Shown one piece after another: positions 35,248-61,824 of a stretch of DNA of 64,000 bases. Numbering within the stretch: position 1 is the stretch's first letter; the number at the start of each line of letters is the position of its first letter. The DNA is taken from assembly GCA_026417615.1 (NCBI GenBank), contig JAOACY010000032.1, positions 638-64,637 of the forward strand. Direction: 5' to 3'. The notes beneath the pieces are model-generated. The model did no database searches. It was not told the origin of the DNA and was given only the letters and a program-made list of their open reading frames with translations. Both the position numbers and the translations under genes were made by a program. This DNA is from Clostridia bacterium. GTDB lineage: Bacteria > Bacillota > Clostridia > Acetivibrionales > JAFADI01.

Positions 35248-35263
35248 TATTATATGAGGTTTT

Positions 35264-40942: not shown

Positions 40943-43354
40943 TCAGCAAAGTCCCCTTAGGTCAATCAGGTTCATACTGTCACCGAAAATCTCCCTGCAC
41001 AAGTCTGCTTCCCTGCTCTTGCAGGTGAAAAGAATAATCTGTCTCTTTTGTGACAGCTCCTTGAACAGCCGCAGAGCTTCGGCAGCTCTGAAATCATCAT
41101 ATTGCGCAAAGACTTCGTCCATAATGACAGGCAGTGTCTCACCGTTTGCTGATATAATATCCGAGGACGCAAGCCTTAAGGCAAGATATACCTGATCTAC
41201 GGTGCCCCCGCTCAAAGCCGCTGCAGGAACAACCTCTCCGCTTTCAGGCGACAATATGCGAAGGTTCAATTTGTCATCAGCTCTCAAATCACTGTATCTT
41301 TCGCCTGTAATCAAGCTTATTATTCTGCTCATCCCTGAATTCAATGCGGGCGTGAAGTCTCTTTGAAGCTCAAGGCTTGCCTCAGTCATAATATCCAGAG
41401 CCTTCCTTAATGCAGTGCTTGTGTCCTCAAGCTCCTTCTTCCTGGCTTCAAGCTCATCAATTTCCTCGTTTATTCGCTGAATATTGTTTTCATCAATATC
41501 CATGCTTTTTAACAGAGTCTCCTGCTCCTTTAAAGAAAGAGCACAGCTTGTCAGGTCTTCACAGCAAGCATTGTACGCTGAGCTTATAATGCCCGCCAGC
41601 TCACTAAATTCCATATTTAAAAAGCTGTCTTTCAAATTTTCTCTGCCGTTTATGCTGACAGCGCTTCCCACGCAAAGAGCTTCAACCATTTCCAATTGCT
41701 CCATGATCTCTTTTTGCAATTCCCCGATATTTTGACCAATATCACTGATCGCCTCTTCAATTTGTGCTGAGCTGCTGCATTCCACCCTGAATAAAGAAGC
41801 AGCCTTGCTGAATAGAGCCTCAATCTCTCTGTTCAAATCCTCAACTCTCTTGCACACATAGTTTTCACCGGGTTCAAGGCCATAATAGCTCCTTACTCCG
41901 AGCTTAAAATCCCTTATATATTCCTCTCTAATTTCATCCTGTCCTTCCTCAATGATACCTGCGGCACAAAGCTTGGAGTTTACAGCTTTTTCAAGAGCTG
42001 ACATCTGTTCAGCTACAGCCTTGAGCTCTTTATTTTTTTTGTCTGCTTCCTCATCTATACTCTTGATAAAAGCAGAAGATACCGTCTTTAAGCTCTTCAA
42101 TTCTGCCAGCTTCCTTGATGCCGCAAGCTTTAGCGTAAATGCAATGGCTGCAGGAATAAAGGCGGGAAAAGCCATAAATGATTTAAAAAGGTTCATGAGA
42201 GCTCCTGCTGTAAAAGCAGCAAAAAATAATATGGATAAAATCAGTGCATATGTTGAAAGCTTGTCCTTAAATTCTGCCTCTATTATTTTTTCATTTAAAT
42301 CCTCAATATCACTTCCCTTGACATTTTCCTCATGTTTTTTAAAGCTGATTTCATTAGAAAGCATGCTGAAAGCCTTTTTCAGGCTTTGCAAAGTATAGTA
42401 GTCCTCACTGAGTCTGTCAGCATCTTCGCTTGTATAAACGGAAAACCTGGAAAGCCTTTTTTTCATCTCCTTGTATTCACTTGTCTTACGCTGCAATGCT
42501 GCCAATTCCCGTTCGGCTGTTCTGGCAGCTTCAAGTATTTCCAAGGCCTGCTGCTGCTTTCCTTTGAGCTCCGTCAGCTGTTTTCTCGATTCCAGCAGTT
42601 CTGCTAGCTTTAGCAGAACACCTTTTTTATGCTCAAGGCTTGCTTTCTTTCGTGTCTCGACATCAATGACGTTTTCAATTTTTACAGCTGAAAATGTTCT
42701 TTCAAGCAGCTTTTCCCGCTCGCACCTTAAAGCATTAAGTCTTGAAAGAACTCTGTCAAGCGGACGTGTGGTAGTCTTTCCTGTTCCCACATAATTTCTT
42801 AAGGCCTCCCTTATTGCCTCCTGCGCTTTGACAAGGGATACATCCTCAAAACCTGTCTGGCATACGTTGAGGAGCTTGCTCTGGAGCTCCCTTGCTCCGT
42901 CCCCATCAACCCTGGCTTCCATTTGTCTTATAAAAACTGTCCTCTCAAAGCACGCCTCATTCATCCCCAAATGCTTTTCCGCAAACAAAGGCCCTCTGTC
43001 CCTGCTGGAATCAAAAGCAGCCGTTATATCATTAAAAGAGCCGTCATGTATGGTTACTGTGTTGTTGTTGAAGTTCCTTCCTATCCTATAGAACGCGCCG
43101 TTGTCCAGCCTATACTCCAAAAACCCGTTATAGTCGCTTCCGGTCCATGGCTTAAACCTTTTTAAGGGCGAAGGCGACCCGTCCTTGGCTGCACGCCCGC
43201 TTTTCAAGCCGTACAGCATCGCCTTGACAAAGGCCTGCATGGAGGTTTTTCCTGATTCATTATGCCCATAAACTACATTTATACCTTGAGAAAAGTCTGC
43301 AGTTATATTGTTTAGTTTGCCAAAGCCTTTTATCTCCAGCCTTTCAATCTTCAT
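40943..43354 (-). CDS. Rad50/SbcC-like AAA ATPase (YhaN-like) with a central hydrophobic hairpin
   Basis: Walker A GHNESGKTS, a long coiled coil, C-terminal signature LSGGTVDQVYLALRLA and Walker B PVIMDEVF. Two hydrophobic helices lie at about aa 368-412. Confidence 0.85.
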   Translation of the reverse strand: MKIERLEIKGFGKLNNITADFSQGINVVYGHNESGKTSMQAFVKAMLYGLKSGRAAKDGSPSPLKRFKPWTGSDYNGFLEYRLDNGAFYRIGRNFNNNTVTIHDGSFNDITAAFDSSRDRGPLFAEKHLGMNEACFERTVFIRQMEARVDGDGARELQSKLLNVCQTGFEDVSLVKAQEAIREALRNYVGTGKTTTRPLDRVLSRLNALRCEREKLLERTFSAVKIENVIDVETRKKASLEHKKGVLLKLAELLESRKQLTELKGKQQQALEILEAARTAERELAALQRKTSEYKEMKKRLSRFSVYTSEDADRLSEDYYTLQSLKKAFSMLSNEISFKKHEENVKGSDIEDLNEKIIEAEFKDKLSTYALILSILFFAAFTAGALMNLFKSFMAFPAFIPAAIAFTLKLAASRKLAELKSLKTVSSAFIKSIDEEADKKNKELKAVAEQMSALEKAVNSKLCAAGIIEEGQDEIREEYIRDFKLGVRSYYGLEPGENYVCKRVEDLNREIEALFSKAASLFRVECSSSAQIEEAISDIGQNIGELQKEIMEQLEMVEALCVGSAVSINGRENLKDSFLNMEFSELAGIISSAYNACCEDLTSCALSLKEQETLLKSMDIDENNIQRINEEIDELEARKKELEDTSTALRKALDIMTEASLELQRDFTPALNSGMSRIISLITGERYSDLRADDKLNLRILSPESGEVVPAAALSGGTVDQVYLALRLASSDIISANGETLPVIMDEVFAQYDDFRAAEALRLFKELSQKRQIILFTCKSREADLCREIFGDSMNLIDLRGLC

Positions 43355-44495
43355 TAATGCTTATCCTTCCTTCATCCAAAGCTTCAAGTCCATAATAGAG
43401 GGCTTTCATCAAAAGCCTTTTCTCATATTCATCCCGGCTTTGGCCAAGGGCTTCAAACACTTTTCTCGTAAAAAGGCCTTTAAGTCCGTACTCCTTCATT
43501 ATCTCACCAATATTATAATCCGGAATCAACTCGTCTATGACTCTTACGGAGAAGAATGCTTTTCCCAGGCACTTCCTGAGCTTGTTAATATCCGGCTTTA
43601 AAACAGGGTCGACATGCCCTTTGAGCTTGATTTCCAGAACTACATTCGAAGCATCAGTCATGGATGCAGCATTTTGAATTCTTTCAAAAACCTCCTGCTC
43701 GCTGCAGCAGCCATCCAATTTTACGTCAGTGCTTACATAACTTCTTATTCCGGTTTTATGGAAACGCAAGTCAAGAGCTTTCCCGGAACCCTTTCGCTTT
43801 GTTATTTCACCGATAAACACACCATGCTCTCCCGGCTCGTCAAAGCCCATGGCTTCAGGGCTGCCTGGATTATATATATTGCCGTAACCACCCAGGTTGT
43901 CAATTCTATTGTGAAAGTGGCCCAACGCAATATAGTCCATTCCAAGCTCGTTGAGCTCGCTGCTTTTCATAGGATTATAGGCAAAATTGCCAAACTCCAT
44001 GTCTACCGTGCCATGTACAACCAGAAGATTTATATGCTCGCAGCTTGCCGGTACAAGCTTTGATACCAGAGACCTTCCTTCATAGAAATTTCTGAAGCCC
44101 ACACCATACACACAGGTGTCGATATCCTCAAGAAGAATATAGGGAATGTCTCCTGTCATTATTGTCACATTATCAGGCCATTTGTGATAGTTGTAAAAAG
44201 AGTTGGCAATAAAGGGATCATGATTGCCAGGTGCAATAAAAACCCTTATTTGGGGTATCTCCTTAAAGGAGCTGCAAATGAATTCTATTGTTGCCCTCCT
44301 GACATATTCATGTTCATACAAATCACCGCTGATAATCAGCAGGTCCACTTCTTCAAGAGCTGCCAGTTCTATAATCCTTTTGAAGCACTGCTTAAGCTCC
44401 TGTCGCCTGAGCGATTTCTGTTCTTCTGTAAAGCCCGAGCAGCCAAAGTGCTTGTCAAGGTGCAAATCCGCACAATGCAGGAACTTCAATATCAT
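43344..44495 (-). CDS. metallophosphoesterase DNA repair exonuclease (YhaO/SbcD-like)
   Basis: Calcineurin-like motifs HCADLHLD, GDLYEH, GNHD and GHFH. It overlaps the ATPase gene by 11 nt. The likely start is MILKFLH at 44495. Confidence 0.85.
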   Translation of the reverse strand: MILKFLHCADLHLDKHFGCSGFTEEQKSLRRQELKQCFKRIIELAALEEVDLLIISGDLYEHEYVRRATIEFICSSFKEIPQIRVFIAPGNHDPFIANSFYNYHKWPDNVTIMTGDIPYILLEDIDTCVYGVGFRNFYEGRSLVSKLVPASCEHINLLVVHGTVDMEFGNFAYNPMKSSELNELGMDYIALGHFHNRIDNLGGYGNIYNPGSPEAMGFDEPGEHGVFIGEITKRKGSGKALDLRFHKTGIRSYVSTDVKLDGCCSEQEVFERIQNAASMTDASNVVLEIKLKGHVDPVLKPDINKLRKCLGKAFFSVRVIDELIPDYNIGEIMKEYGLKGLFTRKVFEALGQSRDEYEKRLLMKALYYGLEALDEGRISINED

Positions 44496-44516
44496 CACTC
44501 CCAAACATCCAAGCAA

Positions 44517-45000: not shown

Positions 45001-45795
45001 CTAATATCTTGCTCTGTTCCTGCGCCTTTCCTGCAGAACGCTGTCCAGCGCCGAAGCCTCATTGACTGCCGCTTCAAGCTTATCCAGCATATCCTGCGAT
45101 TCAATGCTGGATAAGACCTGGTGTTTGAACATGCTTACAGTACTCTCCATATACTCAAGCTTGGCATTAATCCTTTCAAGCTCGATTTTTTCTTCCTTAA
45201 GACCTTTTACTATATTTTCATCCATCTCGATAACCTTCTTTATATCTTCGGCTGCATGCAAATCTTTTGCAAAGCTTAGCTTTCTGATATTAAGATTTAT
45301 CCTGTTTACAACCTCGCTTAAATCTGTCTGATTCAATTCCCTTGTCCTTTTTGAGTAGTTGATTAAAAGCTTTATATAGGATGCGACAAGGTTCAGTGTC
45401 TGCTCAACAATTCTCTCCTTCAAATAGCTGGATTCTCCTCTGAAAAACGAGCTTACTATCTCATTCTTGGACTCCATTACTTTTTTAAGCTTCTGGTAAT
45501 GAGCTTGGTTAAGAACCCTTCTCGCTTCATAGCCCAGCTTTTGGCATTCGCGATCCAGCTGACGTATCCGGCTAATCTTCTGCTTGCGGTTGAAATCCTC
45601 ATGGAATTTTTTGCTGGATAGCGTGTAAATTATTGAAGCAGCATATATGCAGGCAGCTGATATTAAGGCCGCAAGTGTTGCATCCCCTCCGAACCCGGTT
45701 TGGGGAATAATTAAATATGATCCTAAAAAGCCTGCGGCAAGCCACAGAATGTTTGAAAATTTAAAAACAGCCTTTAAAACCAGCCTTGTCATCAT
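45001..45795 (-). CDS. membrane-anchored coiled-coil protein (possibly XpaC-like)
   Basis: 264 aa with two N-terminal TM helices followed by long heptad-rich helices. The family assignment is only a guess. Confidence 0.5.
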   Translation of the reverse strand: MMTRLVLKAVFKFSNILWLAAGFLGSYLIIPQTGFGGDATLAALISAACIYAASIIYTLSSKKFHEDFNRKQKISRIRQLDRECQKLGYEARRVLNQAHYQKLKKVMESKNEIVSSFFRGESSYLKERIVEQTLNLVASYIKLLINYSKRTRELNQTDLSEVVNRINLNIRKLSFAKDLHAAEDIKKVIEMDENIVKGLKEEKIELERINAKLEYMESTVSMFKHQVLSSIESQDMLDKLEAAVNEASALDSVLQERRRNRARY

Positions 45796-45823: not shown

Positions 45824-46309
45824 TTATAAAATTAATTGGTAAAGCAGTAAGTCCTGCCACTGCTCAAACTTGTATCCAGCGTGCCTTATCCTGCCGCAAA
45901 ATTCAAAGCCCAGTCTTTCATGCATGCCAACACTAATATCGTTGCCTGCGGTAATGCATGCCATTATAACATGGTGTTCCAGGCTCCTTGCTCTTTCTAT
46001 GACTTCCTTCATAAGCGCCTTGCCTGCTCCCCTGCCATGGTAGTCAGGATGTATATACACAGAAAGCTCAACCGTCCGGAAGAAGCCTTCCTTCTCTCTG
46101 AACTTGGAAAGGCTGGTGTACCCGATTATTTTTCCATCCGTTTCAGCAACAAGCAGAGGGTATTTGCCTCCGTAGCCGTTGAACCATTGTCTCCTGCTTT
46201 CAAGCGACTGCACGTTTATATCAAAGCTTGCCGTAGTATTTGCAACAGCCCAGTTATATATGCCTGCAAGTTCTTCAATATCCTCAATAACAGCGTCTCT
46301 TATTATCAT
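45824..46309 (-). CDS. GNAT N-acetyltransferase (phosphinothricin-acetyltransferase-like)
   Basis: MIIRDAVIEDIEE start and an acetyl-CoA motif HPDYHGRGAGKALM. The ORF track extends to 46369. Confidence 0.8.
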   Translation of the reverse strand: MIIRDAVIEDIEELAGIYNWAVANTTASFDINVQSLESRRQWFNGYGGKYPLLVAETDGKIIGYTSLSKFREKEGFFRTVELSVYIHPDYHGRGAGKALMKEVIERARSLEHHVIMACITAGNDISVGMHERLGFEFCGRIRHAGYKFEQWQDLLLYQLIL

Positions 46310-46387
46310 ATTAATGACTCCATAAAACAAATAGGCGATGAGCCACAGGCTTACACGCCCACAACCCAAAGCCTATTGACTTCTTTT

Positions 46388-47116
46388 CTAATTCGTAGCC
46401 TTATTCTCAGTTTTTTCTTTTACCTCAAAGCCCCCATCCCCTGAAAGCATAGCCTCCGCTCTTGCCCTTGCCCTGTCTCTCGCGGAGTTCATATCCAGCC
46501 TCTTAAGCTTCATTTCCATATTGTTGTCATTAAGGGACTCAATTGCATTAGCCCTTGCAGTCTTCTTGTTGACAATCTCTCTTGCCCTGTCCATGCTTTC
46601 ATTTACATTTCCAACCCTGCTGTTCTTTGATGTGTACTGGGCATTTACCGAGTTTATGTTTTCCCTGAGCTGAGCCATTTTTGCCTGTGACTTGAGGGTC
46701 TTGAGCTCATTGAGCTTCCCGTTCATTTCTGATTCGAATATCTTGTAGTCCTCTCTTATCTTTGCCACCTCAGCCATTGCATTGTCATAAGTAGCCTTGT
46801 GGGTTTCGTACACTGTCTGATATTCTTCTTCCTGCATAAGGAGCTCAACCAAAACATCCTTTTCCCCATGCTTTTGAGCAGCCTCTATTCTTGTCTTTAT
46901 TGCATTGAGATTCTTTTCGGCTGTCTTCATTTCGATCTTAATAAGCTCCGCATTCGTCTGAATCTCTATTATCTGCTGCTCCGCTTCTTTTCTCGCTTTA
47001 TCGATCTGCTGCCTGATATCTTCAAATAAAACTTCCGGATTCTTCTCCTCAAGGCCTCCGACAAAAAGTCCAAAAAATCCTCTTATCATGGCTCCAAGCC
47101 TGCTGAACAAACCCAT
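46388..47116 (-). CDS. pspA: PspA/IM30 family protein (bacterial ESCRT-III fold)
   Basis: 242 aa with an N-terminal amphipathic helix MGLFSRLGAMIRGFF, EKNPEVLFEDIRQQIDKA, and a long coiled coil typical of PspA/LiaH/Vipp1. Confidence 0.88.
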   Translation of the reverse strand: MGLFSRLGAMIRGFFGLFVGGLEEKNPEVLFEDIRQQIDKARKEAEQQIIEIQTNAELIKIEMKTAEKNLNAIKTRIEAAQKHGEKDVLVELLMQEEEYQTVYETHKATYDNAMAEVAKIREDYKIFESEMNGKLNELKTLKSQAKMAQLRENINSVNAQYTSKNSRVGNVNESMDRAREIVNKKTARANAIESLNDNNMEMKLKRLDMNSARDRARARAEAMLSGDGGFEVKEKTENKATN

Positions 47117-47213
47117 ATACTATTCCTCCCTTTTATAATTGTGGCTAGATTTCAAAAAGGCAAATTCACTGCGGGCAAGACCTGCCTATTGCACGGCAGG
47201 TATGTCCCTTTAC

Positions 47214-47243
47214 ATTATACCCGCAAATAATTATGCTTGTAAA
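47214..47243 (-). promoter_or_regulatory. promoter candidate for pspA (TTTACA-N18-TATAAT, overlapping GTTTAC-N16-GGGTAT)
   Basis: On the minus strand: TTTACA 47238-47243 and TATAAT 47214-47219. The same DNA also reads GTTTAC...GGGTAT. It sits directly after the AAA+ stop codon. Confidence 0.5.
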
Positions 47244-48884
47244 CTATGTGTTTTGATATATTTCCAGGAGTTTTTCCAGTTCGTCCCTGTTATCCATATA
47301 GCCCCTGTATCTTTCCGGGAGAAGATCATAATCATCACATTCCTTGATTGCCAGAGCCGTCATGAACTGGACCTGGCGAGTACTGGGCCTGCATCTGGAA
47401 ATAGCGTCCCTTAGTATATCACCGGTTATGGTATTGCCTTCACAGTTATCCTCATTGGCAAGTTCATACGCTTTTCTTACAACTGCTTCAAGCTCTGCTC
47501 CGGTGTAATTCTCAGCTGCTTCGGCAAAAGGCGCAAAGTCTTTTATGTCTGTCTCAAAGCCGTATTTCCTGATAATTACTTTGAAAATACCGGCCCTCTC
47601 GTCCTTATCTGGCAAAAGTATAGGTATTTTCTTATCAAACCGCCCCGCCCTTTTCAAAGCTGAGTCTAAAAGGTCAGGCCTGTTTGTGGCTGCTATAAAA
47701 ATAACCTTCCCCCTATTATTTGTATTACTTGTGAACTGTAAAAATTCACTGAAAATATTCCTGCTGACACCACTGTCTCCACTTTCTCCCCTTCTGAAGG
47801 CCGTGTCAATCTCATCCACAAATACAATCACCGGCTGCTGGGATCGAGCTCCTAAAAGGCATTTCTTAAAATTCTTCTCGCTTTCTCCCACATATTGCCC
47901 CAGTATCCTGGACATGTCTATTTTTACGCAGTTGAAGCCGCTTGCTTTCGCCAGGGCATTAACAAGCAGGGTTTTTCCTGTGCCAGAAGGCCCGCAAAGC
48001 AGAATGCCCATTGGCACTCGTCTCAGATCACCTTTTTTTATCGGTTCAACTATGTTTTTCAGCAGGTATTTTTTCGCCCTTTCCATACCGCCTATATCTT
48101 CAAAACCTATTTCCGGGTAAATGAATTCCAGAACATCTCCATATTCCTTAGCAAGGACGGAATGCTTCTTTTCCTTTATAAATTCAAAGCTGATGGGAAC
48201 ACCCTCTGCCTCAGCCTTCAGCTTAATATCCTTTATCGCCTTCTTGCTTAAGCCTGAAGACAGCTTCGCAAATTCGTCAGGGGTAATATCTGATCTTACG
48301 CTGTTGTCTTTCAGCAAATACTCAATATATTCCTTTCGAGCATTTTCGCCGGGCAGCTCGACAAGCACAGGCTCAACCCTGTATGCGGATTTAAGTATTT
48401 CCCTGCTTATATCGGCGATATTATCCGCCAGCATGAAAATAGCGCTGCCCACCGAGGAAATTTTCGGATTCACAGACCACTCGCTTGTCCAGATAAGAGC
48501 CATTCTCTCTTCCAAAGACATGCTCCCCACATCCACCGAGGGGAGAATCTTTTCAAAATGGTCAATAAACAATGCCATCTTAGTGCTTTTTAGAGCTATG
48601 TCTATATAAGGAAATATTTTTGACGGAAGTGCTCGAAGGAGGCTTGCAGCCTCGTTGGAGGTTATCTTGTTGAACTCCTTTTCCATGCCTGCATCCATGA
48701 AGGTAAGTCCTCTGGAAATGTCATAATAAGCCACAATGGCAAATTGCCGCTGCTTTATGAATTCCTCAAAAAGGAACCTGTCAATGAATCTGTTATTGTC
48801 CACAAGATCCCTTACATTAAAATAAAGTAAAAATTCATGTGAAATACCTGATTTGTATTTGCTTAAGAACTCTTCATACCACAT
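47244..48884 (-). CDS. two-lobed AAA+ ATPase (P-loop-less N-terminal lobe, classic-clade AAA C-terminal lobe)
   Basis: 546 aa with Walker A GPSGTGKT, Walker B VIVFVDEID and SRH ATNRPDLLDSALKRAGRFD. The first ~270 aa have no P-loop. Confidence 0.85.
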   Translation of the reverse strand: MWYEEFLSKYKSGISHEFLLYFNVRDLVDNNRFIDRFLFEEFIKQRQFAIVAYYDISRGLTFMDAGMEKEFNKITSNEAASLLRALPSKIFPYIDIALKSTKMALFIDHFEKILPSVDVGSMSLEERMALIWTSEWSVNPKISSVGSAIFMLADNIADISREILKSAYRVEPVLVELPGENARKEYIEYLLKDNSVRSDITPDEFAKLSSGLSKKAIKDIKLKAEAEGVPISFEFIKEKKHSVLAKEYGDVLEFIYPEIGFEDIGGMERAKKYLLKNIVEPIKKGDLRRVPMGILLCGPSGTGKTLLVNALAKASGFNCVKIDMSRILGQYVGESEKNFKKCLLGARSQQPVIVFVDEIDTAFRRGESGDSGVSRNIFSEFLQFTSNTNNRGKVIFIAATNRPDLLDSALKRAGRFDKKIPILLPDKDERAGIFKVIIRKYGFETDIKDFAPFAEAAENYTGAELEAVVRKAYELANEDNCEGNTITGDILRDAISRCRPSTRQVQFMTALAIKECDDYDLLPERYRGYMDNRDELEKLLEIYQNT

Positions 48885-49002
48885 CGCAATTTTATCCCGT
48901 AACTTGCCGGCACCCTTTCCCTTCTTATTGTCATATATGTGTTACGATAATTTTATAGGAAAGTCTAATAAAAAGCAATAAATATGAAAAGCATTAATCT
49001 CA

Positions 49003-49464
49003 TTATACTTCAAGCCCTATATTAATCTGGATTCTTCCGAAAGGCGTCTCCATGTCAACGGCTACCGTCTGAACCGAGCTGATAATGAGCATAATGTCCC
49101 TTCCAATTATTATTGACGGCGGAGTAAGATCGGTTGCGACACCGGCTTGCGACAGAATTGCCGAGGCCCTCCCCCCCATCATATTGGCCATCTCCCCCAG
49201 AGCGCTTCTGGCTATTGAATCCAGGGTTTCAACAGGCATTCCCATCATCATGGCTGAAGCAATTTTTTTGCCCGTTTCCTCTGTCATGCAATAGGCTATA
49301 TTACCTCTTACATCGCCCACTATGCCTATTATCGATGTAATGTCCATATCCGCCAGCATGGTTTCCTTCTTCTGAAGCCCGCCTTTTTTTATATCTGATG
49401 CGCCAAAAGTCTCCAAAACATTTTTAAGTGCCTCAAGAAACGGATTTATATATTTTATGTCCAT
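49003..49464 (-). CDS. cheX: CheX-type CheY-P phosphatase
   Basis: 153 aa with one complete [D/S]-x3-E-x2-N-x22-P motif (SALGEMAN...TPP). Confidence 0.82.
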   Translation of the reverse strand: MDIKYINPFLEALKNVLETFGASDIKKGGLQKKETMLADMDITSIIGIVGDVRGNIAYCMTEETGKKIASAMMMGMPVETLDSIARSALGEMANMMGGRASAILSQAGVATDLTPPSIIIGRDIMLIISSVQTVAVDMETPFGRIQINIGLEV

Positions 49465-49467
49465 AAC

Positions 49468-49941
49468 TCAAAGCCCCCTTTCAAAAGCTGCATTCAGCCT
49501 GAGCTTTCCGTATTCCGAAGTACAGTACATAGAGTACGAATTCAGCTTTGGAATGCATATGGCGGCGCCCTTCCCGGCAAAAACCACAGGAGGGGCTAGT
49601 CTTAAGCTTAAAGAATGCATGTTGTTTAAAGCAGTTATTGCGTCACCTGCAACAATATTGTTCAGTTCAGATATTGCCGCCAGAACCATATATTCCTTTT
49701 CCGAGCTGAATTCCTGCCCCACGATGTTTTTTGCTATTTCCAGAGCCAGGCTCTGCTCAATGTCGAGAAGCAGCCTGCCCTTAATCTTTCCTGAAAAGGA
49801 AATTATGGAGGATACTCCGTAGGATTCTATATCCTCAGTTTCTGGATGAAATACTTCAGTAGTCCTCAATTCTATCCCCGACATTTGCCTGAGAACACCC
49901 GCAATGCTTTTTTTAAATGGATCATAAAGCTGTGCTTGCAT
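49468..49941 (-). CDS. CheX/CheC-family protein (motif lacks the leading D/S)
   Basis: 157 aa. ISELNN...LAP keeps E-x2-N-x22-P, but the residue at -4 from Glu is Ala. Confidence 0.72.
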   Translation of the reverse strand: MQAQLYDPFKKSIAGVLRQMSGIELRTTEVFHPETEDIESYGVSSIISFSGKIKGRLLLDIEQSLALEIAKNIVGQEFSSEKEYMVLAAISELNNIVAGDAITALNNMHSLSLRLAPPVVFAGKGAAICIPKLNSYSMYCTSEYGKLRLNAAFERGL

Positions 49942-49953
49942 AATCTCCCCCCA

Positions 49954-50313
49954 CTAAACCAGTTTTGCTATTGCGCTGATAATCTTATAGTCATCAAAGG
50001 GTTTTTTGAGGAATATATCAATTCCCAAATCCTTTGCTTGAGACATGATTTCCTCGTCTCCCATGGCACTTAGCATAATAATTCTGGCTTGTGGCCTTAA
50101 GGTCTTTATGCTCTTGGCTGCTTCCAAGCCATCCATTATCGGCATGGTAATATCCATGAAAACAAGGTCGGGATTTAGCTGTCCAAAAAGCTCCACACCC
50201 TCCCTGCCGTTTTTTGCATCTCCGCAAACCTCATATCCGTTATTCTCCAGCGTCTTTCTCAGCAGGTTGTGAATAATCGGCGAATCATCTACAATAAGAA
50301 TTCTCTTAATCAT
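49954..50313 (-). CDS. cheY: single-domain response regulator CheY
   Basis: 119-aa REC with ILIVDDS, phospho-acceptor context LVFMDITMP and a conserved Lys (FLKKP). Confidence 0.9.
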   Translation of the reverse strand: MIKRILIVDDSPIIHNLLRKTLENNGYEVCGDAKNGREGVELFGQLNPDLVFMDITMPIMDGLEAAKSIKTLRPQARIIMLSAMGDEEIMSQAKDLGIDIFLKKPFDDYKIISAIAKLV

Positions 50314-50414
50314 AATTATCTATCCTTTCTATTTATATGGTAATTTTTGCGGCAAAACCTTCTCTTTATTTCCTTGTTTGAAAAGCAACTTCCCCTGTGT
50401 TCGGCTTGAAAATC

Positions 50415-50912
50415 TTACATGCAGGCAAGCTCCAAGGTTAGTATGCCCTCTCCAATACGGAATGATTTTTCAAGCTTTTGAATCCTGTTCTTATACAGTA
50501 TGACATAGTTGTCACCCGTTACTATAAAGGGCGAAGTAAGCTGAAAATATTCGTCGGAATCTGCCAGCGCAGCTTTAGCTCTTCCGCAGACCATATTTAC
50601 CAATTCTGCGGTTCCGTCATACAAGTCTTCTTCGTTTGCCTCACTGACAATTATTCCGGTCATATATGACACAATCAACGCAGCGGTGTCTGAATCCATT
50701 CTTATTGAAGCCATTGAGCTCCTCTTGCCCGCCAGCGTCATTGCACCTGTTATATACTTTCCGCCACGGTCGCTGAAATTATTTTCCCCTTGTATTTCCA
50801 CCGGTTCAAGACCAGCCATTGTGCTTAACACATCATAAACAGCCGTTGAAAAAGCTCTTCCAATAAATTCATTTCTATCTAAAAAAGCTCTTTCTTCCAT
50901 TGAATCATTCAC
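50415..50912 (-). CDS. cheX: CheX-type CheY-P phosphatase
   Basis: 165 aa with one complete motif DGTAELVN-x22-P. It overlaps the upstream cheY by 8 nt. Confidence 0.8.
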   Translation of the reverse strand: MNDSMEERAFLDRNEFIGRAFSTAVYDVLSTMAGLEPVEIQGENNFSDRGGKYITGAMTLAGKRSSMASIRMDSDTAALIVSYMTGIIVSEANEEDLYDGTAELVNMVCGRAKAALADSDEYFQLTSPFIVTGDNYVILYKNRIQKLEKSFRIGEGILTLELACM

Positions 50913-51279
50913 CCCTTCCCAGACATTGAAGGATTCGTTTGATCAGCTCTTCAATAGTAAAAGGTTTTGTCATGTAGTGTATCGCTCCGGCCTTGATAGC
51001 CTTGATTATATTCTCCTTCTCGCTTTCTGTGGTAACCATCATAACGGGTATTCCTGCATAATCCCGATGTGCCTTTATTGCTTTTAAAAATTCAAGCCCG
51101 TCCATTCCCGGCATGTTCCAATCGAGCAGCACCAATCCAACATTTTTCCACTCTTTTTCGAGAACATCAAGGGCTTCCTGCCCGTCACCGGCTTCAAGAA
51201 GCCCGAACTCCAAAACCTCGGCGGCACCCCTGACGATTTTTCTGATTACAGCGGAATCATCCACTGATAATATTTTCAT
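50905..51279 (-). CDS. cheY: single-domain response regulator CheY
   Basis: 124-aa REC with ILSVDDS, LVLLDWNMPGMDG and YMTKPF. Confidence 0.9.
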   Translation of the reverse strand: MKILSVDDSAVIRKIVRGAAEVLEFGLLEAGDGQEALDVLEKEWKNVGLVLLDWNMPGMDGLEFLKAIKAHRDYAGIPVMMVTTESEKENIIKAIKAGAIHYMTKPFTIEELIKRILQCLGRGE

Positions 51280-51286
51280 TTATCCC

Positions 51287-52147
51287 TCACCCCTTAACCC
51301 TGTAGTAAACACCATTATTGTATTGCTCCAAGATAAAGTAATCCCTGTAGTCGGGAAACAACTCAGAGCTTCCGATAATTAATTTCCCGTCCGGATTCAG
51401 CGCACCCGCTATTTTCACCATTACCTCCCTTTTGAGCTGCTCCGAGAAGTAAATTATTACATTCCTGCATAAAATCAAATCAAATTTACCCATCAGCACA
51501 AAACTGTTCTGAAGGTTGAATTGCTGAAAATGCACTGAGCTTTTAATTCTTTCATCCAGACACCATACCCGGCCTTCATTTTTAAAATACCTGTCCCGGT
51601 AGCCATTTTCCATTCCCCTCATTATTGAAATGCTGTCATATCTTCCCATTCTGGCTACCTGAAGAACAGTTTTGGATATGTCAGTCGCAAGTATTCTGAA
51701 ATTTGAAAGGTTAATATCGGCAATACCCTTCCTTGCAAGGTGATTATCTATGCACATTGCTATCGAGTATGGCTCCTGACCTGTTGAGCATGCCGCGCTC
51801 CAAATCCTTATAGAGGTTTTCAAGCCCTCTCTAAGCTCTTTAATATATTGCGGCATAAGTACATTGTCAATTATCTCAAAGGGTGTTTTATCCCTGAACC
51901 AGAGGGTTTCATTGGTAGTCAAGGCATCAATCACCTGTTCCGTGATGCCTTGATCGCCCCCGACGGCTATCTTTTGGTAGAGCTCCTCAAAGCTGCTTAA
52001 GTTTGAGTCCACCAGCAGCTTTGAAAGCCTGCTTTCAATCAGGTATGCTTTTTCTTCGCCTATGGCAATGCCGCACTTTTCCTGTATAAATTTCTGAATC
52101 AGTTTAAATTCTTTTGACGTCAAGCTTGGAGCCATATATTCCTCCAC
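51287..52147 (-). CDS. cheR: chemotaxis protein methyltransferase CheR
   Basis: 286 aa with a CheR N-domain, TNETLWFRD, and a SAM-binding region IWSAACSTGQEPYS. Confidence 0.93.
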   Translation of the reverse strand: MEEYMAPSLTSKEFKLIQKFIQEKCGIAIGEEKAYLIESRLSKLLVDSNLSSFEELYQKIAVGGDQGITEQVIDALTTNETLWFRDKTPFEIIDNVLMPQYIKELREGLKTSIRIWSAACSTGQEPYSIAMCIDNHLARKGIADINLSNFRILATDISKTVLQVARMGRYDSISIMRGMENGYRDRYFKNEGRVWCLDERIKSSVHFQQFNLQNSFVLMGKFDLILCRNVIIYFSEQLKREVMVKIAGALNPDGKLIIGSSELFPDYRDYFILEQYNNGVYYRVKG

Positions 52148-53242
52148 TTACACAAGCTGCAGTATTCTAGCGCCCATATCCTTCAAATCCACCGCTTCAT
52201 CTGACAGCCCAGCCTCCGCAACACACCTGGGCATACCATAGACAACACAGGATGCCTCCGTCTGTGTCAGGCAAATGCAATTGCATCTGCGCTTTAGCTC
52301 TGCAACACCCTGTGCGCCATCATTACCCATGCCTGTTAAAATAACCGCCAGTATATTTTTGCCCTCGTAGGCTTTTGCAACTGATGTAAACAGCACATCA
52401 GCCGCAGGCCTTACCCCGTTGACGAATGGCTGACTGTTAAGAGCTATTACTTTTTCATTTCCCCTGCTTACCACTTCCATGTGAAAACCACCTGGTGCAA
52501 TAATAATTTGATTATTGCTGACAAAATCCTCATTTTTGCCTTCAACTGCTTTTATCTGATATTTCCTGTCCAGGGTCTCAGCCAGAATCCTTGTAAATTC
52601 AGGCGGCATATGCTGCACAACCAGAACCGGTTTTTTAAAGCTTGCCGGAAATGCTCCGAAAACAGTCTCCAAGGCCGCCGGCCCTCCCGTAGAGGATGCG
52701 ACGAGTACCAGGTCAGCCCCCGCCCATTTATTTATGATTGGCTTAACAGGAGAGCTTGTAATTGCATGTAATTTAACATCCTTTGAGCTCTGCAGCATAC
52801 TATCAGCATAAGCTTGGACAGGAGATGCGCTGAACCTTTTAATCTTAATCTGGGCGAAAAGGACTTGGAGCTGATTTCTTATTCTGTCCATATTTTTATC
52901 GTATGACGCTTCCGAAGGTTTTAAAATAAAGTCCATCGCCCCCAGCTTCAAAGCTTCAAGCGTTACAGCCGCATTATCCGAACCGCCGCTGCTTATCATT
53001 ATTACAACAATATCAGGATATTCTCTTTTTATAACCTTTAATGCTTCGATTCCATCCACCTCAGGCATGAAGACATCCAAAAGAACAACATCCACCCCGC
53101 CCTGCTTCAGCCATTCAAGAGCTATCGCTCCATTTGAAGCACTCCTTGCGACAACCCCAAGGCCCGTGCCCTCCACAGCCTCTGCCAGGATTTTTCTGTA
53201 AACTATGGTATCATCCGCTATTAGCACCTTAAGCTTGTCCAA
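52148..53242 (-). CDS. cheB: protein-glutamate methylesterase CheB (REC + esterase)
   Basis: 364 aa with an N-terminal REC (VLIADD...VVLLDVFMPEVDG) and an esterase domain (ASSTGGP, QHMP, GMGNDG). Confidence 0.93.
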   Translation of the reverse strand: MDKLKVLIADDTIVYRKILAEAVEGTGLGVVARSASNGAIALEWLKQGGVDVVLLDVFMPEVDGIEALKVIKREYPDIVVIMISSGGSDNAAVTLEALKLGAMDFILKPSEASYDKNMDRIRNQLQVLFAQIKIKRFSASPVQAYADSMLQSSKDVKLHAITSSPVKPIINKWAGADLVLVASSTGGPAALETVFGAFPASFKKPVLVVQHMPPEFTRILAETLDRKYQIKAVEGKNEDFVSNNQIIIAPGGFHMEVVSRGNEKVIALNSQPFVNGVRPAADVLFTSVAKAYEGKNILAVILTGMGNDGAQGVAELKRRCNCICLTQTEASCVVYGMPRCVAEAGLSDEAVDLKDMGARILQLV

Positions 53243-53372
53243 AGAGTCTCTACCTCCGCTAACATAATAAATTGAGCTTTTTCCTGCGCACGATTATTCT
53301 GCAAAAACAGCTTTTCTTTAAAACAAATTGCAAACCACTCACAGTTCCCGAAAATGCGTTTTTGCCGTGGAA

Positions 53373-55727
53373 TCATATTTTAAATTGCCTTACCAACTCT
53401 TCAAGCTTGCGGGCAATATCCGAAAGACCCTTGGCCGAGTTGCTGGTTTCTACGGCACCCGCTGCGGTATCGCCTGCCGCGCTGCTTATCTCCTGGATGT
53501 TTTGAGCTATCTCATTTGCTCCCTTTGAAACCTCGACAGAAGTCATGGCAACCTCACGCACCCTTGCAGTTGCAGTTTCGGTGCTCTTTGCCACTTCATT
53601 GGAGGCAGACGACAGCTCGGTGGCTGACCGCGCTATTTCCCTCACGCCTTTTGCAGACTCCGCTATGCTCTTCGAGACATCTTTTGCATTCGCGGCCACT
53701 TCTCCGATTTCCCTGGAAATTAAGTTTACTTTTTCGGCAGCCCTTACAATTGCATTGGATATATCCCCAGTTGTGGCAGACTGTTCGGTAACAGCCGCAG
53801 CTATTGTGTTGGTTATTGATGTCATCTCCTTTATAACCTCCGTTATAGTCTCAACTGCCTTTACCGCCCCCGACATATTCCCCTGCATAGCCTCTATCTG
53901 CTGTCCTATTTCCTCTGTTGCTTCGGCGGTCTGCTTAGCCAGCTCTTTTACTTCATTTGCCACCACGGCAAAGCCCTTGCCGGCTTCTCCGGCTCCCGCA
54001 GCTTCTATGGCTGCATTTAAAGCAAGCATATTTGTCTGGTCTGCTATATCATTAATTACATTTATTATCTTTCCAATCTGCCTTGAGGATTGGTTGAGCC
54101 TTTCTATTATAGTGTTTGTATCCTTTGCCTTTGCATCTGCATCCGAAGTAATATGAATCGACCGTTCACAGTTTTTGTTGATTTCATTAAGCGAGATGTT
54201 GATTTCCTTGACAGCTGTTGCAACACTATTTACAGAGCTTGAAACCTCCCTGGCCGAATCCGACACATTGGATATGCTTCCGGTAATCTGGCTTACCAGC
54301 TCCGTAGCCTGTGTTACGCCGGCAGACGTCTGTTCCGAGGCAGAAGCCAGATTTCTTATCGTCCCCGACATCTCCTCAACAGCTGAAGCAATAATGCTCA
54401 TGCTGCTGCTTGTGTCGTTCATGGCCGCGGCTGTCTGGTTCATGCTTGCGGATATCTCCTCAACGGCCGCGCTGACCACCGTGGTCTTTGCGCTGGTTTC
54501 CTCGCTGGTTGCAGCCATGGATTCCGCTACATTCAACAAGCCTTCCGACGATTTGTTCACAAGCATTGTTGAATCGTAGATATTTTTAATCATTGCACCG
54601 ATTTTTTCGAACAATGAGTTGAAGGAAGCCGTCAATTCACCGATCTCATCGTGCGACAGCACTTCGCCCCTGATGCTCAAATCCCCCTTCTCCGCCTGAG
54701 ACATCAGAACCTTGAGCCTTACTATTGGATCAGATATTTTTTTGGAAAAAATCAATCCGAACAGGACAATTAGAACTATTGCCACAACACATACTATAAG
54801 CATTATTATTCCTATCATATTGCTCGAGCGGAATGCTTCACTCGAGTCAATTTCAGTTATCAAGCCTGCATAAAGGTCTCCCAGCTTTAAAACGCTGTAT
54901 TTCCCAATTACCTTTTCCCCTCTGTAATCCAAAAACTCCCCGGCAAATTCATATTCGGCATTTTTTTGAGTTATTGGCTCAGAAAGCCTTTTTACCGCAC
55001 TTCCAGAAACTTTGCTCTTAAAAGGTTCAAAATTGCCGAATTTCGGTTTGCTCATGCATATCCCATCGGACCCAACCAGGTATGCATCCGCCGACTCTCC
55101 TACCGCATCCATTCCTTCGACCACCTTGCTGGTTACGTCCTCAGTCTTCAAGACTATAGAAAATACGCCTATAACTTCACCACTCTCCCCGTTTGCATAT
55201 ACCGGGGCTGCGAAGGCGGTAATATAGTCTTTAACAAATTCTGAATAGAAAAATGGGGAATTGTTCACCTGCCCCTGTTTTGCCAGCTTGAAATAATCCC
55301 TGCCGCTGAGATCCTTTCCTATAAGCCCCTTGTCATTTGAAAATATCACCTTGCCGTCAATATCCAGCATATTGACCAGTTCGCTGCGGTAACCCTTTTT
55401 AACCGAATTGATGAAGGTTTCAAGCGCGGGCTCCCTTTGTTTCCACTCAGGCGCGTTCATATCCTTGTTTACTGACATGTAAATATTCATCGCCTGGTAA
55501 ACATCCCTGGTGGATGCAAGCACCTTACAGTCCGTTGCATTCCTTTCAAAAATATTCATAATATAACCTTTTTTCTGTTCTTCAAAAACGTCCAGCTTCT
55601 TTACAGTTTCGGATTTCAACGCATTGGCCGCCATTATGTAAGAAAAACCGCTAATGGCTATAAATGGAACAAGACTTGATATGAGCAGTACTGAAATTAT
55701 TTTTTTGTTTAGCTTCATATTTTTCAT
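53373..55727 (-). CDS. methyl-accepting chemotaxis protein (TM - double-Cache-like sensor - TM - HAMP - very long signalling domain)
   Basis: 784 aa with the hairpin-tip consensus [32 protein letters not shown], a HAMP after TM2, and a ~280-aa periplasmic domain between the two TMs. Confidence 0.92.
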
Positions 55728-55748
55728 TATTTTCCTACCTCCCCATAA

Positions 55749-56180
55749 TTATTGTTCAAAAACTTTTAAAGGATCTATTATTATCAAAAGCTCATCTTCA
55801 AGCTTTACAACACACTCAATGAATTCCCCCTCCATTCCTCCCACATTTGCTGGGGGCGGCTCACACTGCTCATCCTCTATGTCAACAACATCCCCCGGTG
55901 CGTCTATGGGAAAGCCAACCTGGTCTGATGCATCCCCCTGAAGGTTCTTCAGGAAAATGCAGGCTGACTTCTGCTCCCATTTTTTGCCGTCCTTTCCTAT
56001 CATTTTCATCAGATTCAATAATGTTACAACCTGCCCCCTCATGTTAAAAAGACCTACGATATACTCCGGCGCGTCGGGTACAGGTGTAAATTCCACGCTG
56101 CGGCTTATTTCCTTCACCAGCGTTATGTCAATGCCCAAAAGCCCTCCTTCCAGCCGGAAGGTTAGCACCTTTCCCGTCAT
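55749..56180 (-). CDS. cheW: coupling protein CheW
   Basis: 143 aa, a single CheW-like domain. It overlaps the cheA stop by 4 nt. Confidence 0.9.
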   Translation of the reverse strand: MTGKVLTFRLEGGLLGIDITLVKEISRSVEFTPVPDAPEYIVGLFNMRGQVVTLLNLMKMIGKDGKKWEQKSACIFLKNLQGDASDQVGFPIDAPGDVVDIEDEQCEPPPANVGGMEGEFIECVVKLEDELLIIIDPLKVFEQ

Positions 56181-59100
56181 ACGGCACGCCTCCTTTCCTG
56201 CAGCGCTTGTTCTATTCTGTCAAGGAGTACAGCCCTGTCAAGCTTGAATTCGTAAAAGTCAAAGCCGGCCTCAAAGCCTGCCTTCTTTTGCTGTTCTCCC
56301 GTAAGCGAGGTGACCGCGATAACAGGCAGATTACGCAAACGGTCATCCTCACGTATTTTTCTGACCAGCTCCAGTCCGTCCAAAACAGGCATATTAATGT
56401 CACTTACCACTACGTCCACCTTGTTTTCCTGAAGGAATTGCAGAGCTTCCCTGCCGTTTTGCGCCAGCAGCACCTTGTAGCCTGCTCCTTCAAGATAGCT
56501 TCTCTCCATGCGCTGGAAGAACGGTGTGTCCTCAGCCACAAGCACAACCTTTTCCTCTCTTGCCTTTCTTCCTAAGGCAGCGGCATAATGGTGAGGGTCA
56601 GCCAGCTCAAACAATTCATACATGTTTATGAGCAGCACCATGGTCTTGTTTATTATGGCTGAACCCATAAGCCCTTTTGCGGATAAAACTTCCTCGTTGA
56701 GCCTTATGCTCGTCAATACCGTATCATCAATCTTCTCAATGAGAATGCCAATAGGGTGCTTCACCAGCTTTGGAACAATAACATACAGCCTGTCCTGCAT
56801 TGACTCATGCTTTGCAACAGGGAGGTAGTCCTCAGGCCTGATTACCCTTAATGAGCTTCCTCGGAATTTTATAAACTCTTTGTCGCCCACTTTATCAATA
56901 TCTGCACGTTTTATTTCCTCCACCCTGGATACCATCGAAAGATCAATGGCAAAGGTTTCAGGACCAGAGCATTTGAAAAGCAAAAGATTTTGCTGCTCTC
57001 TTAATCTTTCTTCATTTTCTTTTGATTCAATGGTAATTTTATCCTCCCCATCTTCTACAAATCTCAGGTTCGCCTTGGAAATAATGCCGTCGGGATCAAG
57101 AATCATCGCAGTTTTACCGTCCCCCATTATAGTTACCCCTGAATAGCATTTACTGTTCTTAATATATTTGGACAGAGGCTTTACAAGTATCTCCTCACTT
57201 CCGTGAATGGCATCCACCGCCACTCCGAACCTCCTTGAGCCGATTTTCAACACAAGTATCCTTATTATATTATTCAGGTCACTCCTGCGAGATTCAATAG
57301 CATATGAGTCATTTGAAATATCTGTCTCTGCGTTGGCAAAATGCATCCTTCTCCTGTCATACAAGGTCTTTCTCCTGTCTTCTTTTGTTTCCCCTGTCAA
57401 GGGATCCTTGTAGGTTCTGACAAGTCCCAGCACATCTGCAAGGTGAACTATGGGCAGCAGCCTTCCTCTAAGCCTTAACACCTCAGAATTATGTACATAT
57501 TCAATTTTTCTTGCAGCCTCTCCGGGCCGTATCCGGACAATCTCCTGGAGATTTGCCTGCGGAAGCGCAAACTTCTGCTTCTCAACCTCAACAATAAGAG
57601 ACGGAATGATGGCAAGAGTCAAGGGAAGCAAAAGCCTGAAGGTTGTTCCGGCGCCTGCGCTGGTGAATATTTCAATAGTCCCTCCCAGCTTTTCGATATT
57701 GGTTTTCACGACGTCCATGCCAACTCCTCTTCCCGAAACATCCGTAATCCTTTCAGCCGTAGAAAAGCCAGGCTTGAATAGAAGCTGCAAAACCTCCTGG
57801 TCGCTCATTGAAGCCACATCGGATTTTGATGCCAGTTCTTTCTCCAGTGCCTTTTTCTTTATTTTCTCCAGGTTTATGCCCGCTCCATCATCCACTATGT
57901 CAATATTTACATAACCTCCCTCATGGTATGCCTTTAAAACGATCCTCCCGACCCTCGGCTTGCCCTTTTGCTCTCTGATTTCCGGAAGCTCCAGGCCGTG
58001 GTCCGCAGCATTTCTTACAAGGTGTGTCAATGGATCCCCCAGTGCCTCGATAATGGATTTATCCAATTCCACCTCTGTTCCTTCAAGCTGAAGCTCAATT
58101 TCCTTGCCAAGCTTCCTTGACAAATCCCGAATTATCCTCGGAAATTTATTGAATACATTTGATATCGGCTGCATTCTCGTCTGCATTACCTTTTCCTGAA
58201 GCTCTGTTGTTATCCTGTCTATGTTCTGAAGTATGGGCTCAATTCCGGAAATATCCTTCCTGTAGCGTTCCATTGCCCGAAGCAGCTGATTTCTTCCTAA
58301 AACCATTTCACTTGCCAGATTCAAAAGATTATTCAGCAAAGAAACATGGACTCTTACACTGTCTTCAAAAACCACGGGCTGGTTTTTCTTATCAATTGCT
58401 TCTTTTTCCTGTTCTTCTTTTTTGTATTGGTTGTGCAGGCCAGACTTGTGCTGAACGAACGGCTGCGTTTTCCCGGCGTTATTTAACAAGTCCTCTGTTT
58501 TTGTATTTGAGTCAAGCTCCTCAATGCGGCTCTCGGGAATATCAAGGGCCATTGGCAGCAGCCCCTTCTCCAGCACCGTGGTAAACAGGAAAGTGAAGGT
58601 TATTTCTGAGTTGAGACATTTGTCGAGATCTTCGATGCTGCTTAAATCTGTTTTTGAATCCACAATATTTCCAATAGACTGAATTTTGTTGAAAAATTTT
58701 ATGGGAGTTATATTTTTTTTGCCAAGGTCTTCATTGAGCAGGAGCCTTACCCTGTAAAGCTTGTGACCGTGCCTTCTTCCCTCCTCTATAATTATCCTTT
58801 CAGAAGTGCTGTCATTGTCGCTGAGCTTGTCTGTTTGCTTTTCAGCGATAAGTCTTCCTCTTTCAAAAGCAGCCGCAAGCTTAATGGTATATTTGGATAT
58901 GTCACACTCCTCGCTCCTGCCGACTTCCAGTATCATTCCTTTAAGGCAATCGTTAGAAGCCAGAAGCAAGTCAATCAGCTCGCGGTCTATTTTCGTTCTG
59001 TTGTTTCTAAGCTCCCCAAGCACATTTTCCATCGAATGTGAAAGCTCTACAATTTTTTTAAGGCCAAAAAAGCCTGCTGTTCCTTTTATACTATGTATGG

Positions 59101-59233: not shown

Positions 59234-59251
59234 TACATTTCACCTCTTTTT

Positions 59252-59981: not shown

Positions 59982-60145
59982 ATAAGCTCCTTTTTAGAGA
60001 AACAGCCAATTATTTGTTTACATAAAGTTTAAGTCGGGCTGTTAGTCTCTCGACAATATTCTTCAAGTTCCGACATCAATTATTATATTTATACCAAGAA
60101 TATTTTGAATCAAACAGAAAAGTTTTGACCCCCTATGTTTAATTA

Positions 60146-60310: not shown

Positions 60311-60328
60311 TTCCAAATTGCCATAGAG

Positions 60329-61750: not shown

Positions 61751-61824
61751 TACCGAACCTCCTGATTCCTGTTTTAGAGCTGAGTATGCAAAATTAATTG
61801 AATTCCAGCCAATTCAATATTTTT

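Follow-up and report, generated by a model that had tools for sequence, protein, structure and literature searches.

A Cdc48-type AAA ATPase encoded beside PspA in Clostridia, a candidate enzyme for the remodelling of PspA polymers

The ATPase and PspA proteins encoded in the window

We analysed a stretch of 64,000 nucleotides (nt) from a Clostridia bacterium (GCA_026417615.1, contig JAOACY010000032.1, positions 638 to 64,637 of the forward strand; hereafter the window), in which the gene of a AAA+ ATPase and a pspA gene are neighbors on the minus strand. The open reading frame (ORF) of the ATPase, 546 amino acids (aa) long, occupies 47244-48884. The PspA/IM30 gene (ESCRT-III superfamily, 242 aa), recognised by its ORF, Pfam, a profile match to a Vipp1 structure and an ortholog alignment, occupies 46388-47116. 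The ATPase gene lies upstream, and the spacer between 47244 and 47116 is 127 nt long. Transcription on the minus strand runs in the order ATPase, pspA, a GNAT acetyltransferase gene, a gene for a protein with two transmembrane helices (2-TM protein), AcpS, an SbcD-like gene and an SbcC-like gene. An initial annotation, made from the letters of the window, had placed a 242-aa PspA gene 127 nt downstream of a 546-aa AAA+ gene on the same strand; the ORFs were found at these coordinates, and the motifs it had quoted (GPSGTGKT, Walker B, the segment of the second region of homology and the PspA N-terminus) were all present in the two proteins.

The Pfam profile PspA_IM30 (PF04012) matched residues 2-221 of the 242-aa protein to profile positions 1-215 of 220 with an E-value of 5.8e-9 and 36.3 bits against a cut-off of 33.9. 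Because this score was near the threshold, a profile of 11 PspA orthologs was built, which aligned end to end with the solved Vipp1/PspA structure 6zvr (1-215 vs 1-208, E-value 2e-5) and also matched 8qbr, 8qbw and sll0617. The protein starts with MGLFSRLGAMIRGFF and has a hydrophobic/amphipathic N-terminal helix (alpha0), and the MGLFSRLGAMIRGFFGLFVGGLEEKNPEVL motif after alpha0 (E-[DE]-x-x-P-E class) is kept in all three PspA clades described below (close, mid and far). By these profile matches, the protein is a member of the PspA/IM30 family within the ESCRT-III superfamily.

The ATPase consists of an inactive N-terminal AAA domain without Walker A (N-lobe; aa 1-250, 48135-48884, minus strand), recognised by alignment and model, an active AAA lobe (aa ~256-500, 47385-48119, minus strand), delimited by Pfam, NCBIfam and motif positions, and a C-terminal extension (aa 501-546, 47247-47384, minus strand), which is conserved in the family alignments and forms three helices in the model. 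Pfam AAA (PF00004) matched aa 294-422 with an E-value of 8e-38. The sole Walker A of the 546-aa protein, GPSGTGKT, is at aa 298-305, followed by an aromatic pore loop (QYVGES, aa 330-335), Walker B (IVFVDE, aa 353-358) and the segment ATNRPDLLDSALKRAGRFD, which holds the sensor-1 residue N401 (ATN at 399) and the arginine fingers R412/R415; the lid carries GAEL at aa 462. Judged by its residues, the ATPase has the full classic-clade set of AAA catalytic and pore-loop motifs of the substrate-threading type. The description of the C-terminal lobe as a classic-clade AAA module in the initial annotation was borne out by the Pfam match and by the intact motifs.

In the N-lobe, FLLYFNVRD stands at the place of the P-loop and ALFIDHFEKILP at that of Walker B; the family alignments show FLLHFNVxD and IDxxExIxP conserved at the same two places. 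The protein begins at this D1-like lobe, W2 being conserved, and ends in a family-wide motif, M-T-x-L-A-x-x-E-x-x-D-x-x-L-L-P-x-x-Y-R. An AlphaFold2 (AF2) model of the ATPase built with 21 diverse members (predicted local distance difference test score [pLDDT] 91, predicted template modelling score [pTM] 0.84) gave the N-lobe a beta-alpha-beta fold with lid helices. In a Foldseek search, the whole chain aligned over 540-585 columns to the tandem D1-D2 of Rix7, Cdc48, NVL, p97 and AFG2, with E-values of ~1e-24 and TM scores of 0.5-0.64. The N-terminal half had been annotated as lacking a P-loop and as a degenerate or substrate-recognition lobe; the missing P-loop and the degenerate character stood, and the substrate-recognition lobe did not, the alignment and the fold showing a degenerate AAA domain. 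The N-terminal 266 aa used as a query retrieved 659 clusters at 50% identity (306 at E-value <= 1e-10), most of them of 560-620 aa, and therefore define a broad family by the N-lobe.

The best sequence matches of the ATPase in the PDB were the D2 domains of VAT, Cdc48 and p97, with VAT D2 first overall (E-value 2.5e-81), and no Vps4 was among the best 60. The NCBIfam models gave 169.7 bits for CDC48 (cut-off 803), 159.3 for PAN, 136.7 for FtsH and 134.7 for CdvC (cut-off 650), all far under the family cut-offs, and the CdvC model matched only at its positions 97-355 of 370. Pfam detected neither an MIT nor a Vps4_C domain. On scores, PDB matches and fold, the ATPase is most simply described as a Cdc48-type two-lobed AAA protein with a degenerate D1, a complete D2 and no N domain, and not as a Vps4 ortholog. 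Membership of the Vps4 family was rejected in view of the missing MIT and Vps4_C domains, the tandem architecture and a CdvC score below those of CDC48, PAN and FtsH. The earlier "Vps4-like" assignment accordingly gave way to a tandem of inactive D1 and D2 of Cdc48 type; because of the same missing domains, the two lobes and the CDC48 and PAN scores above that of CdvC, the protein is an analogue of Vps4/CdvC rather than an ortholog. JGI lists homologs of the ATPase under the generic name "SpoVK/Ycf46/Vps4 family".

Compared with Vps4/CdvC and their ESCRT-III partners (Snf7/CdvB), the ATPase is likewise a classic-clade AAA protein with an aromatic pore loop and two arginine fingers, encoded beside the gene of an ESCRT-III-superfamily polymer, and the same job, ATP-driven extraction of subunits, is proposed for it below. 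Unlike Vps4/CdvC, it lacks the MIT domain, Vps4_C and the beta-domain, and has two AAA lobes instead of one. The type II classic-clade proteins, Cdc48/p97/VAT together with Rix7/NVL/AFG2, are the best matches in both sequence and fold, the latter over both lobes. By contrast with Cdc48/p97/VAT, the ATPase has no N-terminal double-psi-barrel substrate/adaptor domain, because the protein begins at the D1-like lobe; its D1 has neither Walker A nor Walker B, and it carries a distinctive conserved C-terminal LLPxxYR extension.

Conservation of the pairing and its third member

Genomes were scanned from the ATPase side with one genome per GTDB species and a full-length ATPase alignment; the alignment pattern also matched archaeal CDC48, and hence only loci L001-L039 were used. 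Among the close relatives (69-83% identity), pspA lies directly downstream of the ATPase gene in 19/20 assessable loci, the exception being L018; at a further locus, L007, the contig ends too early. It also lies directly downstream in all three Bacillota loci with an ATPase of ~40% identity, including one in a Symbiobacteriaceae metagenome-assembled genome. How often orthologs of the ATPase adjoin PspA genes had been raised as a question in the initial annotation, and both counts answer it in favor of the pairing.

The pairing was equally evident from the PspA side. A metagenome scan placed an ATPase with the N-lobe directly upstream of pspA in 43/43 close loci, and the ATPase directly upstream in 9/10 mid loci (31-40% PspA identity) and 3/4 far loci (24-29% PspA identity), ratios that are biased slightly upward, since the loci counted as assessable include short upstream flanks with a partial ATPase. 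A neighbor-joining tree, indicative only, showed the PspA-linked ATPases of the close and mid clades as sisters and the far PspA-linked clade branching apart, so that at least two separate lineages are present. The adjacency of ATPase and PspA, kept in three divergent clades whichever of the two genes is taken as the starting point, is far beyond chance. From this conserved reciprocal pairing we take the two proteins to be functionally linked.

The spacer between the two genes measures -1 to 34 nt in the mid (~40%-identity) clade and 60-367 nt in the clade of the window. The gaps of the mid clade imply co-transcription, and the genes there are therefore operonic. The warning in the initial annotation that the pairing rested on adjacency is removed by the reciprocal conservation together with these short gaps. 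That the two genes lie together only through common regulation or an inherited order, without joint function, is very unlikely in our view: in the window's clade pspA does have a conserved promoter of its own, and most of the sampled loci come from one order-level group, but the pairing is kept where the ATPases share only 27-40% identity and also in the clade that branches apart, despite changing flanks.

The promoter in question is a sigma-70-type promoter-like site, TTTACA-18-TATAAT (47214-47243, minus strand), which has 11/12 matches, begins right after the ATPase stop codon and was the best site in a 6-kb scan, in agreement with the good pspA promoter annotated earlier at this position. 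No terminator-like site was found in the 127-nt spacer. A related motif, TTTAC..TTATAAATT, occurs in 30/39 unique orthologous spacers of the window's clade, the window having its own variant. In 17/39 unique spacers (e.g. L115, L098 and L084), a perfect palindrome, ATTTATnATAAAT, overlies the predicted -10 of the pspA promoter; it is absent from the window. This palindrome is a candidate operator and may be bound by the GntR regulator, whose gene is conserved upstream. The predicted pspA leader of the window also contains a 7-bp hairpin read from the sequence (ACCTGCC-gtgcaat-AGGCAGGT; 47180-47201, minus strand), which had no aligned counterpart among the spacer alignment rows listed; its significance is doubtful and it was given no weight.

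The third conserved member of the locus is the gene of the 2-TM helical protein (264 aa; 45001-45795, minus strand), identified by its ORF and an AF2 model. It comes after pspA in every assessable close genome locus (18/18), as well as in the close-clade metagenome loci with enough downstream sequence. In five mid-clade loci, a homolog lies 1.6-2.5 kb downstream of pspA, after the gene of a protein that combines a TM segment with an NMT1-type binding domain and an OmpA domain. In the AF2 model (pLDDT 82), which is helical throughout, two TM helices at the N-terminus precede a domain of ~200 aa, which the positive-inside rule places in the cytoplasm. The 2-TM coiled-coil protein noticed at this position in the initial annotation was thus recovered as two TM helices plus a helical domain, and as a conserved partner.

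In Bacillus subtilis, LiaI is a small membrane anchor for the PspA homolog LiaH. The LiaI-LiaH pair resembles the window in that the gene of a PspA homolog is accompanied by that of a small membrane protein, which is a plausible site of membrane recruitment. Unlike LiaI, to which it has no detectable sequence or Pfam relationship, the 2-TM protein has the ~200-aa cytoplasmic helical domain. It belongs to no Pfam family, and Foldseek returned nothing significant for its model, the best matches being designed helical repeats and BAR domains (E-value 0.012). Two names were considered and set aside. The "membrane-anchored divergent Snf7" of Ravi et al. (PMC11237479) found no support, with an hhalign probability of 0.1% against the PspA profile, no Pfam family and no fold match; the XpaC-like name that one source gives to a 2-TM homolog was not confirmed by Pfam.

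At L018 (2459-5763, 69% identity), the only close relative without a downstream pspA, the ATPase ORF has an N-terminal Arg/Gly-rich repeat, and the next gene, judged by the start of its sequence, begins like an AAA_15/OLD-type ATPase.

The dyad itself has been described before. Ravi et al. (mSystems 2024; PMC11237479) reported PspA together with an AAA protein carrying an inactive N-terminal AAA copy in Clostridium sp. BNL1100, and put forward the hypothesis of ATP-dependent membrane remodelling comparable to Snf7/Vps4. They framed the AAA+ partners as chaperones assembling membrane-linked complexes, termed the co-occurrence "occasional" and described a related PspA / PBPB+OmpA / AAA arrangement in a Handelsmanbacteria genome. 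Their dyad (Clo1100_0028, AEY64320.1/AEY64321.1) agrees with the window in having two AAA domains, the N-terminal one inactive, beside PspA in a member of the Clostridia, and in the gene order GntR-HTH (helix-turn-helix), AAA, PspA, acetyltransferase (their Table S3), the GntR ortholog of the window being displaced. It differs in that a chemotaxis cluster of ~13.9 kb lies between GntR and the ATPase in the window. Since a related Clostridium has the same four genes in the same arrangement, the window's pair is probably orthologous to AEY64320.1/AEY64321.1. Homologs are also annotated in Acetivibrio straminisolvens and Clostridium thermosuccinogenes, and strain BNL1100 is currently placed in Ruminiclostridium. 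The dyad and the analogy with Vps4 have therefore already been published from comparative genomics, and the novelty of the present observation is low. The present analysis adds to Ravi et al. the reciprocal counts, the recognition of the 2-TM protein as a conserved member, a conserved promoter of pspA and the VKEK motif at the C-terminus of PspA.

Proposed action of the ATPase on PspA polymers

The conserved reciprocal pairing and the intact threading motifs incline us, with modest preference, to the reading that the ATPase acts on PspA polymers and that the 2-TM protein is a membrane partner; Ravi et al. reached the same reading of the ATPase independently. PspA, the ATPase and the 2-TM protein would together form a three-part membrane-associated PspA system. 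In it, PspA would be an ESCRT-III-superfamily polymer bound to the cytoplasmic face of the membrane via its hydrophobic N-terminal helix, and the 2-TM helical protein would serve as membrane partner or anchor, functionally comparable to LiaI for LiaH. The ATPase would be a hexameric unfoldase of Cdc48 type, in which D1 forms a structural ring free of nucleotide and D2 the active ring; it would engage PspA, thread it through the D2 pore with ATP and extract subunits from rods, rings or carpets, which would result in polymer disassembly, subunit recycling or a remodelled polymer curvature. The job that Vps4 does for ESCRT-III would then be done by an independently recruited, non-orthologous classic-clade AAA protein, and the own conserved promoter of pspA would allow the cell to produce more PspA than enzyme. 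The analyses above show the gene pairing, the domain architecture with its intact catalytic motifs and the family membership of PspA; that the ATPase forms hexamers, that PspA is its substrate and is recognised by the tail described next, and what the 2-TM protein does are all steps that we infer.

A candidate entry point for the ATPase would be the C-terminal tail of PspA, where a G-x-x-V-K-E-K motif stays unchanged between clades with an overall identity of only ~34%. One mid-clade PspA, L147 (4348-5235), has no ATPase within 4.3 kb upstream, and its tail reads GAAASEKSQN instead of GRVVKEKTQN; this single case (n=1) fits the idea of a tail tied to the ATPase.

Several observations weigh against this proposal. 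The far-clade PspA proteins lack the VKEK tail, and neither an MIT domain nor any other module known to bind ESCRT-III is present in the window's ATPase. With its own promoter and the spacer of 60-367 nt in the window's clade, the expression of pspA can be uncoupled from that of the ATPase. PspA itself has a weak ATPase activity that modulates rod diameter (PMC11746142), so that a dedicated enzyme is not strictly required. Further branches of the ATPase family adjoin DUF3150 proteins, a ThiF/E1 cluster or a VWA protein instead of pspA, so that action on PspA is not an intrinsic property of the family. Action of the window's ATPase on PspA, although plausible, is so far a proposal from gene pairing and architecture.

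There are two main rival readings. In the first, the ATPase would be a membrane-protein quality-control unfoldase of the Cdc48/Msp1 kind, whose substrates would be membrane proteins that are damaged or mislocalised, or else the 2-TM protein, with PspA only sealing or stabilising the membrane. Its closest relatives by sequence and fold, Cdc48/p97/VAT, are general segregases, the mid-clade operons add the envelope protein with an OmpA domain described above, and other family branches have non-PspA partners, all of which would suit such a role. The near-obligate, reciprocal pairing with PspA speaks against it, as do the invariant tail motif of PspA, which is expected of a specific client, and the lack of a protease partner encoded in the locus; we regard quality control as unlikely.

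The second, a role as assembly chaperone or holdase, which would keep PspA soluble or load it onto the membrane or the 2-TM anchor, is loosely like PspF-PspA of Proteobacteria. There, too, an AAA+ protein is coupled genetically and functionally to PspA, and the PspF-PspA complex keeps PspA in a low-order state (PMC7619361). This precedent, the conserved pairing and the view of the AAA+ partners as assembly chaperones (PMC11237479) favor a chaperone. PspF, however, is an NtrC-type enhancer-binding AAA+ protein with an HTH, a transcription activator that is inhibited by PspA (PMC11237479, PMC7619361), whereas the window's ATPase is of another clade, has two lobes and carries no DNA-binding domain, so that a regulatory circuit of the PspF type is not possible. 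The canonical aromatic pore loop and the complete hydrolysis machinery are, moreover, typical of threading unfoldases. We consider a chaperone or holdase distinctly improbable.

Disassembly by an ATP-driven motor, the reading to which we incline, bears on an open question, namely how bacterial ESCRT-III-like polymers (PspA, Vipp1 and LiaH) are disassembled or recycled. A review states that a Vps4-like ATPase appears to be absent in bacteria (PMC7619361), and a study of PspA structures leaves disassembly to unspecified "chaperones or PspF" (PMC11746142); the remark in the initial annotation that no PspA-remodelling ATPase is experimentally established in bacteria agrees with both. Our literature search found no experimental study of an ATPase of the window's type, and Popp et al. 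2022 (PMC9239133) make no mention of one. The near-obligate partner of PspA being a complete classic-clade unfoldase, the question becomes testable with two or three purified proteins, and the ATPase appears to be a good candidate for the missing remodelling enzyme of bacterial PspA polymers.

A more specific version is held more tentatively and falls just short of what we would call probable: a dedicated bacterial machine for ATP-driven ESCRT-III remodelling, with a Cdc48-derived hexamer, a structural D1 ring, extraction of PspA via its C-terminal tail and a 2-TM adaptor, which would have arisen independently of Vps4/ESCRT-III. Such a machine would contradict the textbook statement that only archaea and eukaryotes have an ESCRT-III system with its ATPase (PMC10936438, PMC7619361). 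If the ATPase works as proposed, the coupling of an ESCRT-III polymer to a Cdc48-family motor would have evolved more than once, which bears on the origin of archaeal and eukaryotic Vps4 from Cdc48. The window contributes one more ortholog and firmer synteny statistics to this matter, and no new concept.

Other branches of the ATPase family and the surroundings of the locus

Among the branches of the family without pspA, one places the ATPase before a DUF3150 protein of ~425-460 aa in Bacillota and Chloroflexi (L023 8809-10080, L025 8762-10051, L026 8759-10048 and L029-L031), with conserved small upstream genes and in apparently phage-, plasmid- or mobile-element-like contexts. In Saccharibacteria and Yanofskybacteria of the candidate phyla radiation (CPR; L034 5116-10304, L037 6992-12461 and L038 6971-10259), the family ATPase lies in a conserved cluster with proteins of ~620 aa and ~190 aa, a ThiF/E1-like protein (Pfam E-value 1e-10) and a protein of ~95 aa, of which only ThiF was assigned; this cluster may be a ubiquitin-like conjugation system beside a Cdc48-type unfoldase. 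In one family member, P0162, the P-loop is interrupted (GPMG|CVSGDTFV...) and unrelated sequence follows (alignment A1, columns ~420-700), which suggests a putative intein in Walker A.

The mobile contexts raise the reading of the window's locus as a mobile or anti-phage system, with an IetA-like ATPase or one of the DUF3150-associated branch and PspA as membrane effector. PADLOC reported IetA at 107 bits and NCBIfam IteA at 87 bits, and sister clades occur in the phage- or plasmid-like contexts with DUF3150. Both matches, however, were restricted to the generic AAA core, and no IetS-like protease partner is encoded at the locus; the surroundings are stable housekeeping genes (GntR, AcpS and SbcCD) in dozens of genomes with ~80% protein identity, and the G+C content of the ATPase-pspA interval is unremarkable (0.42-0.44). 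The defence reading, which is hardly credible on this evidence, was rejected for the core-only matches and the missing partner gene.

Between pspA and the 2-TM gene lies the GNAT acetyltransferase gene (181 aa; 45824-46369, minus strand), which is ArsN1/phosphinothricin-acetyltransferase-like by Pfam and NCBIfam, below the equivalog cut-off. A GNAT gene was found at this place in 7/18 close genome loci and in 10 metagenome loci, and is a variable passenger of the locus.

The GntR-family regulator gene of the window (62790-63461, minus strand) was found by tblastn with 73% identity to the GntR of L007. A GntR gene lies upstream of the ATPase gene in 52 related loci, at a distance of 0.1-2 kb in most relatives. 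In the window, the two genes are separated by the ~13.9-kb chemotaxis cluster (48885-62789, minus strand), which encodes a methyl-accepting chemotaxis protein, CheB, CheR, two copies of CheY, three CheX/CheC-like genes and others. At locus L001, CheX is likewise directly upstream of the ATPase gene. The cluster looks like a lineage-specific insertion or rearrangement, because most relatives have GntR near the ATPase and L001 has CheX upstream.

Downstream of AcpS, at 40943-44516, are the genes of an SbcC-like protein (803 aa; its coiled-coil region is predicted to contain two internal hydrophobic helices) and an SbcD-like protein (Metallophos). Many relatives show the same synteny of these genes with the PspA locus, which is probably inherited gene order only. 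Farther away, the G+C content falls to 0.35-0.37 in window positions 24000-34000, against 0.41-0.48 in the flanks; the GC skew weakens and its sign flips near 34-36 kb, where plus-strand ORFs occupy 34267-36292. This part of the window (24000-34000) may be a horizontally acquired segment or mark a strand switch.

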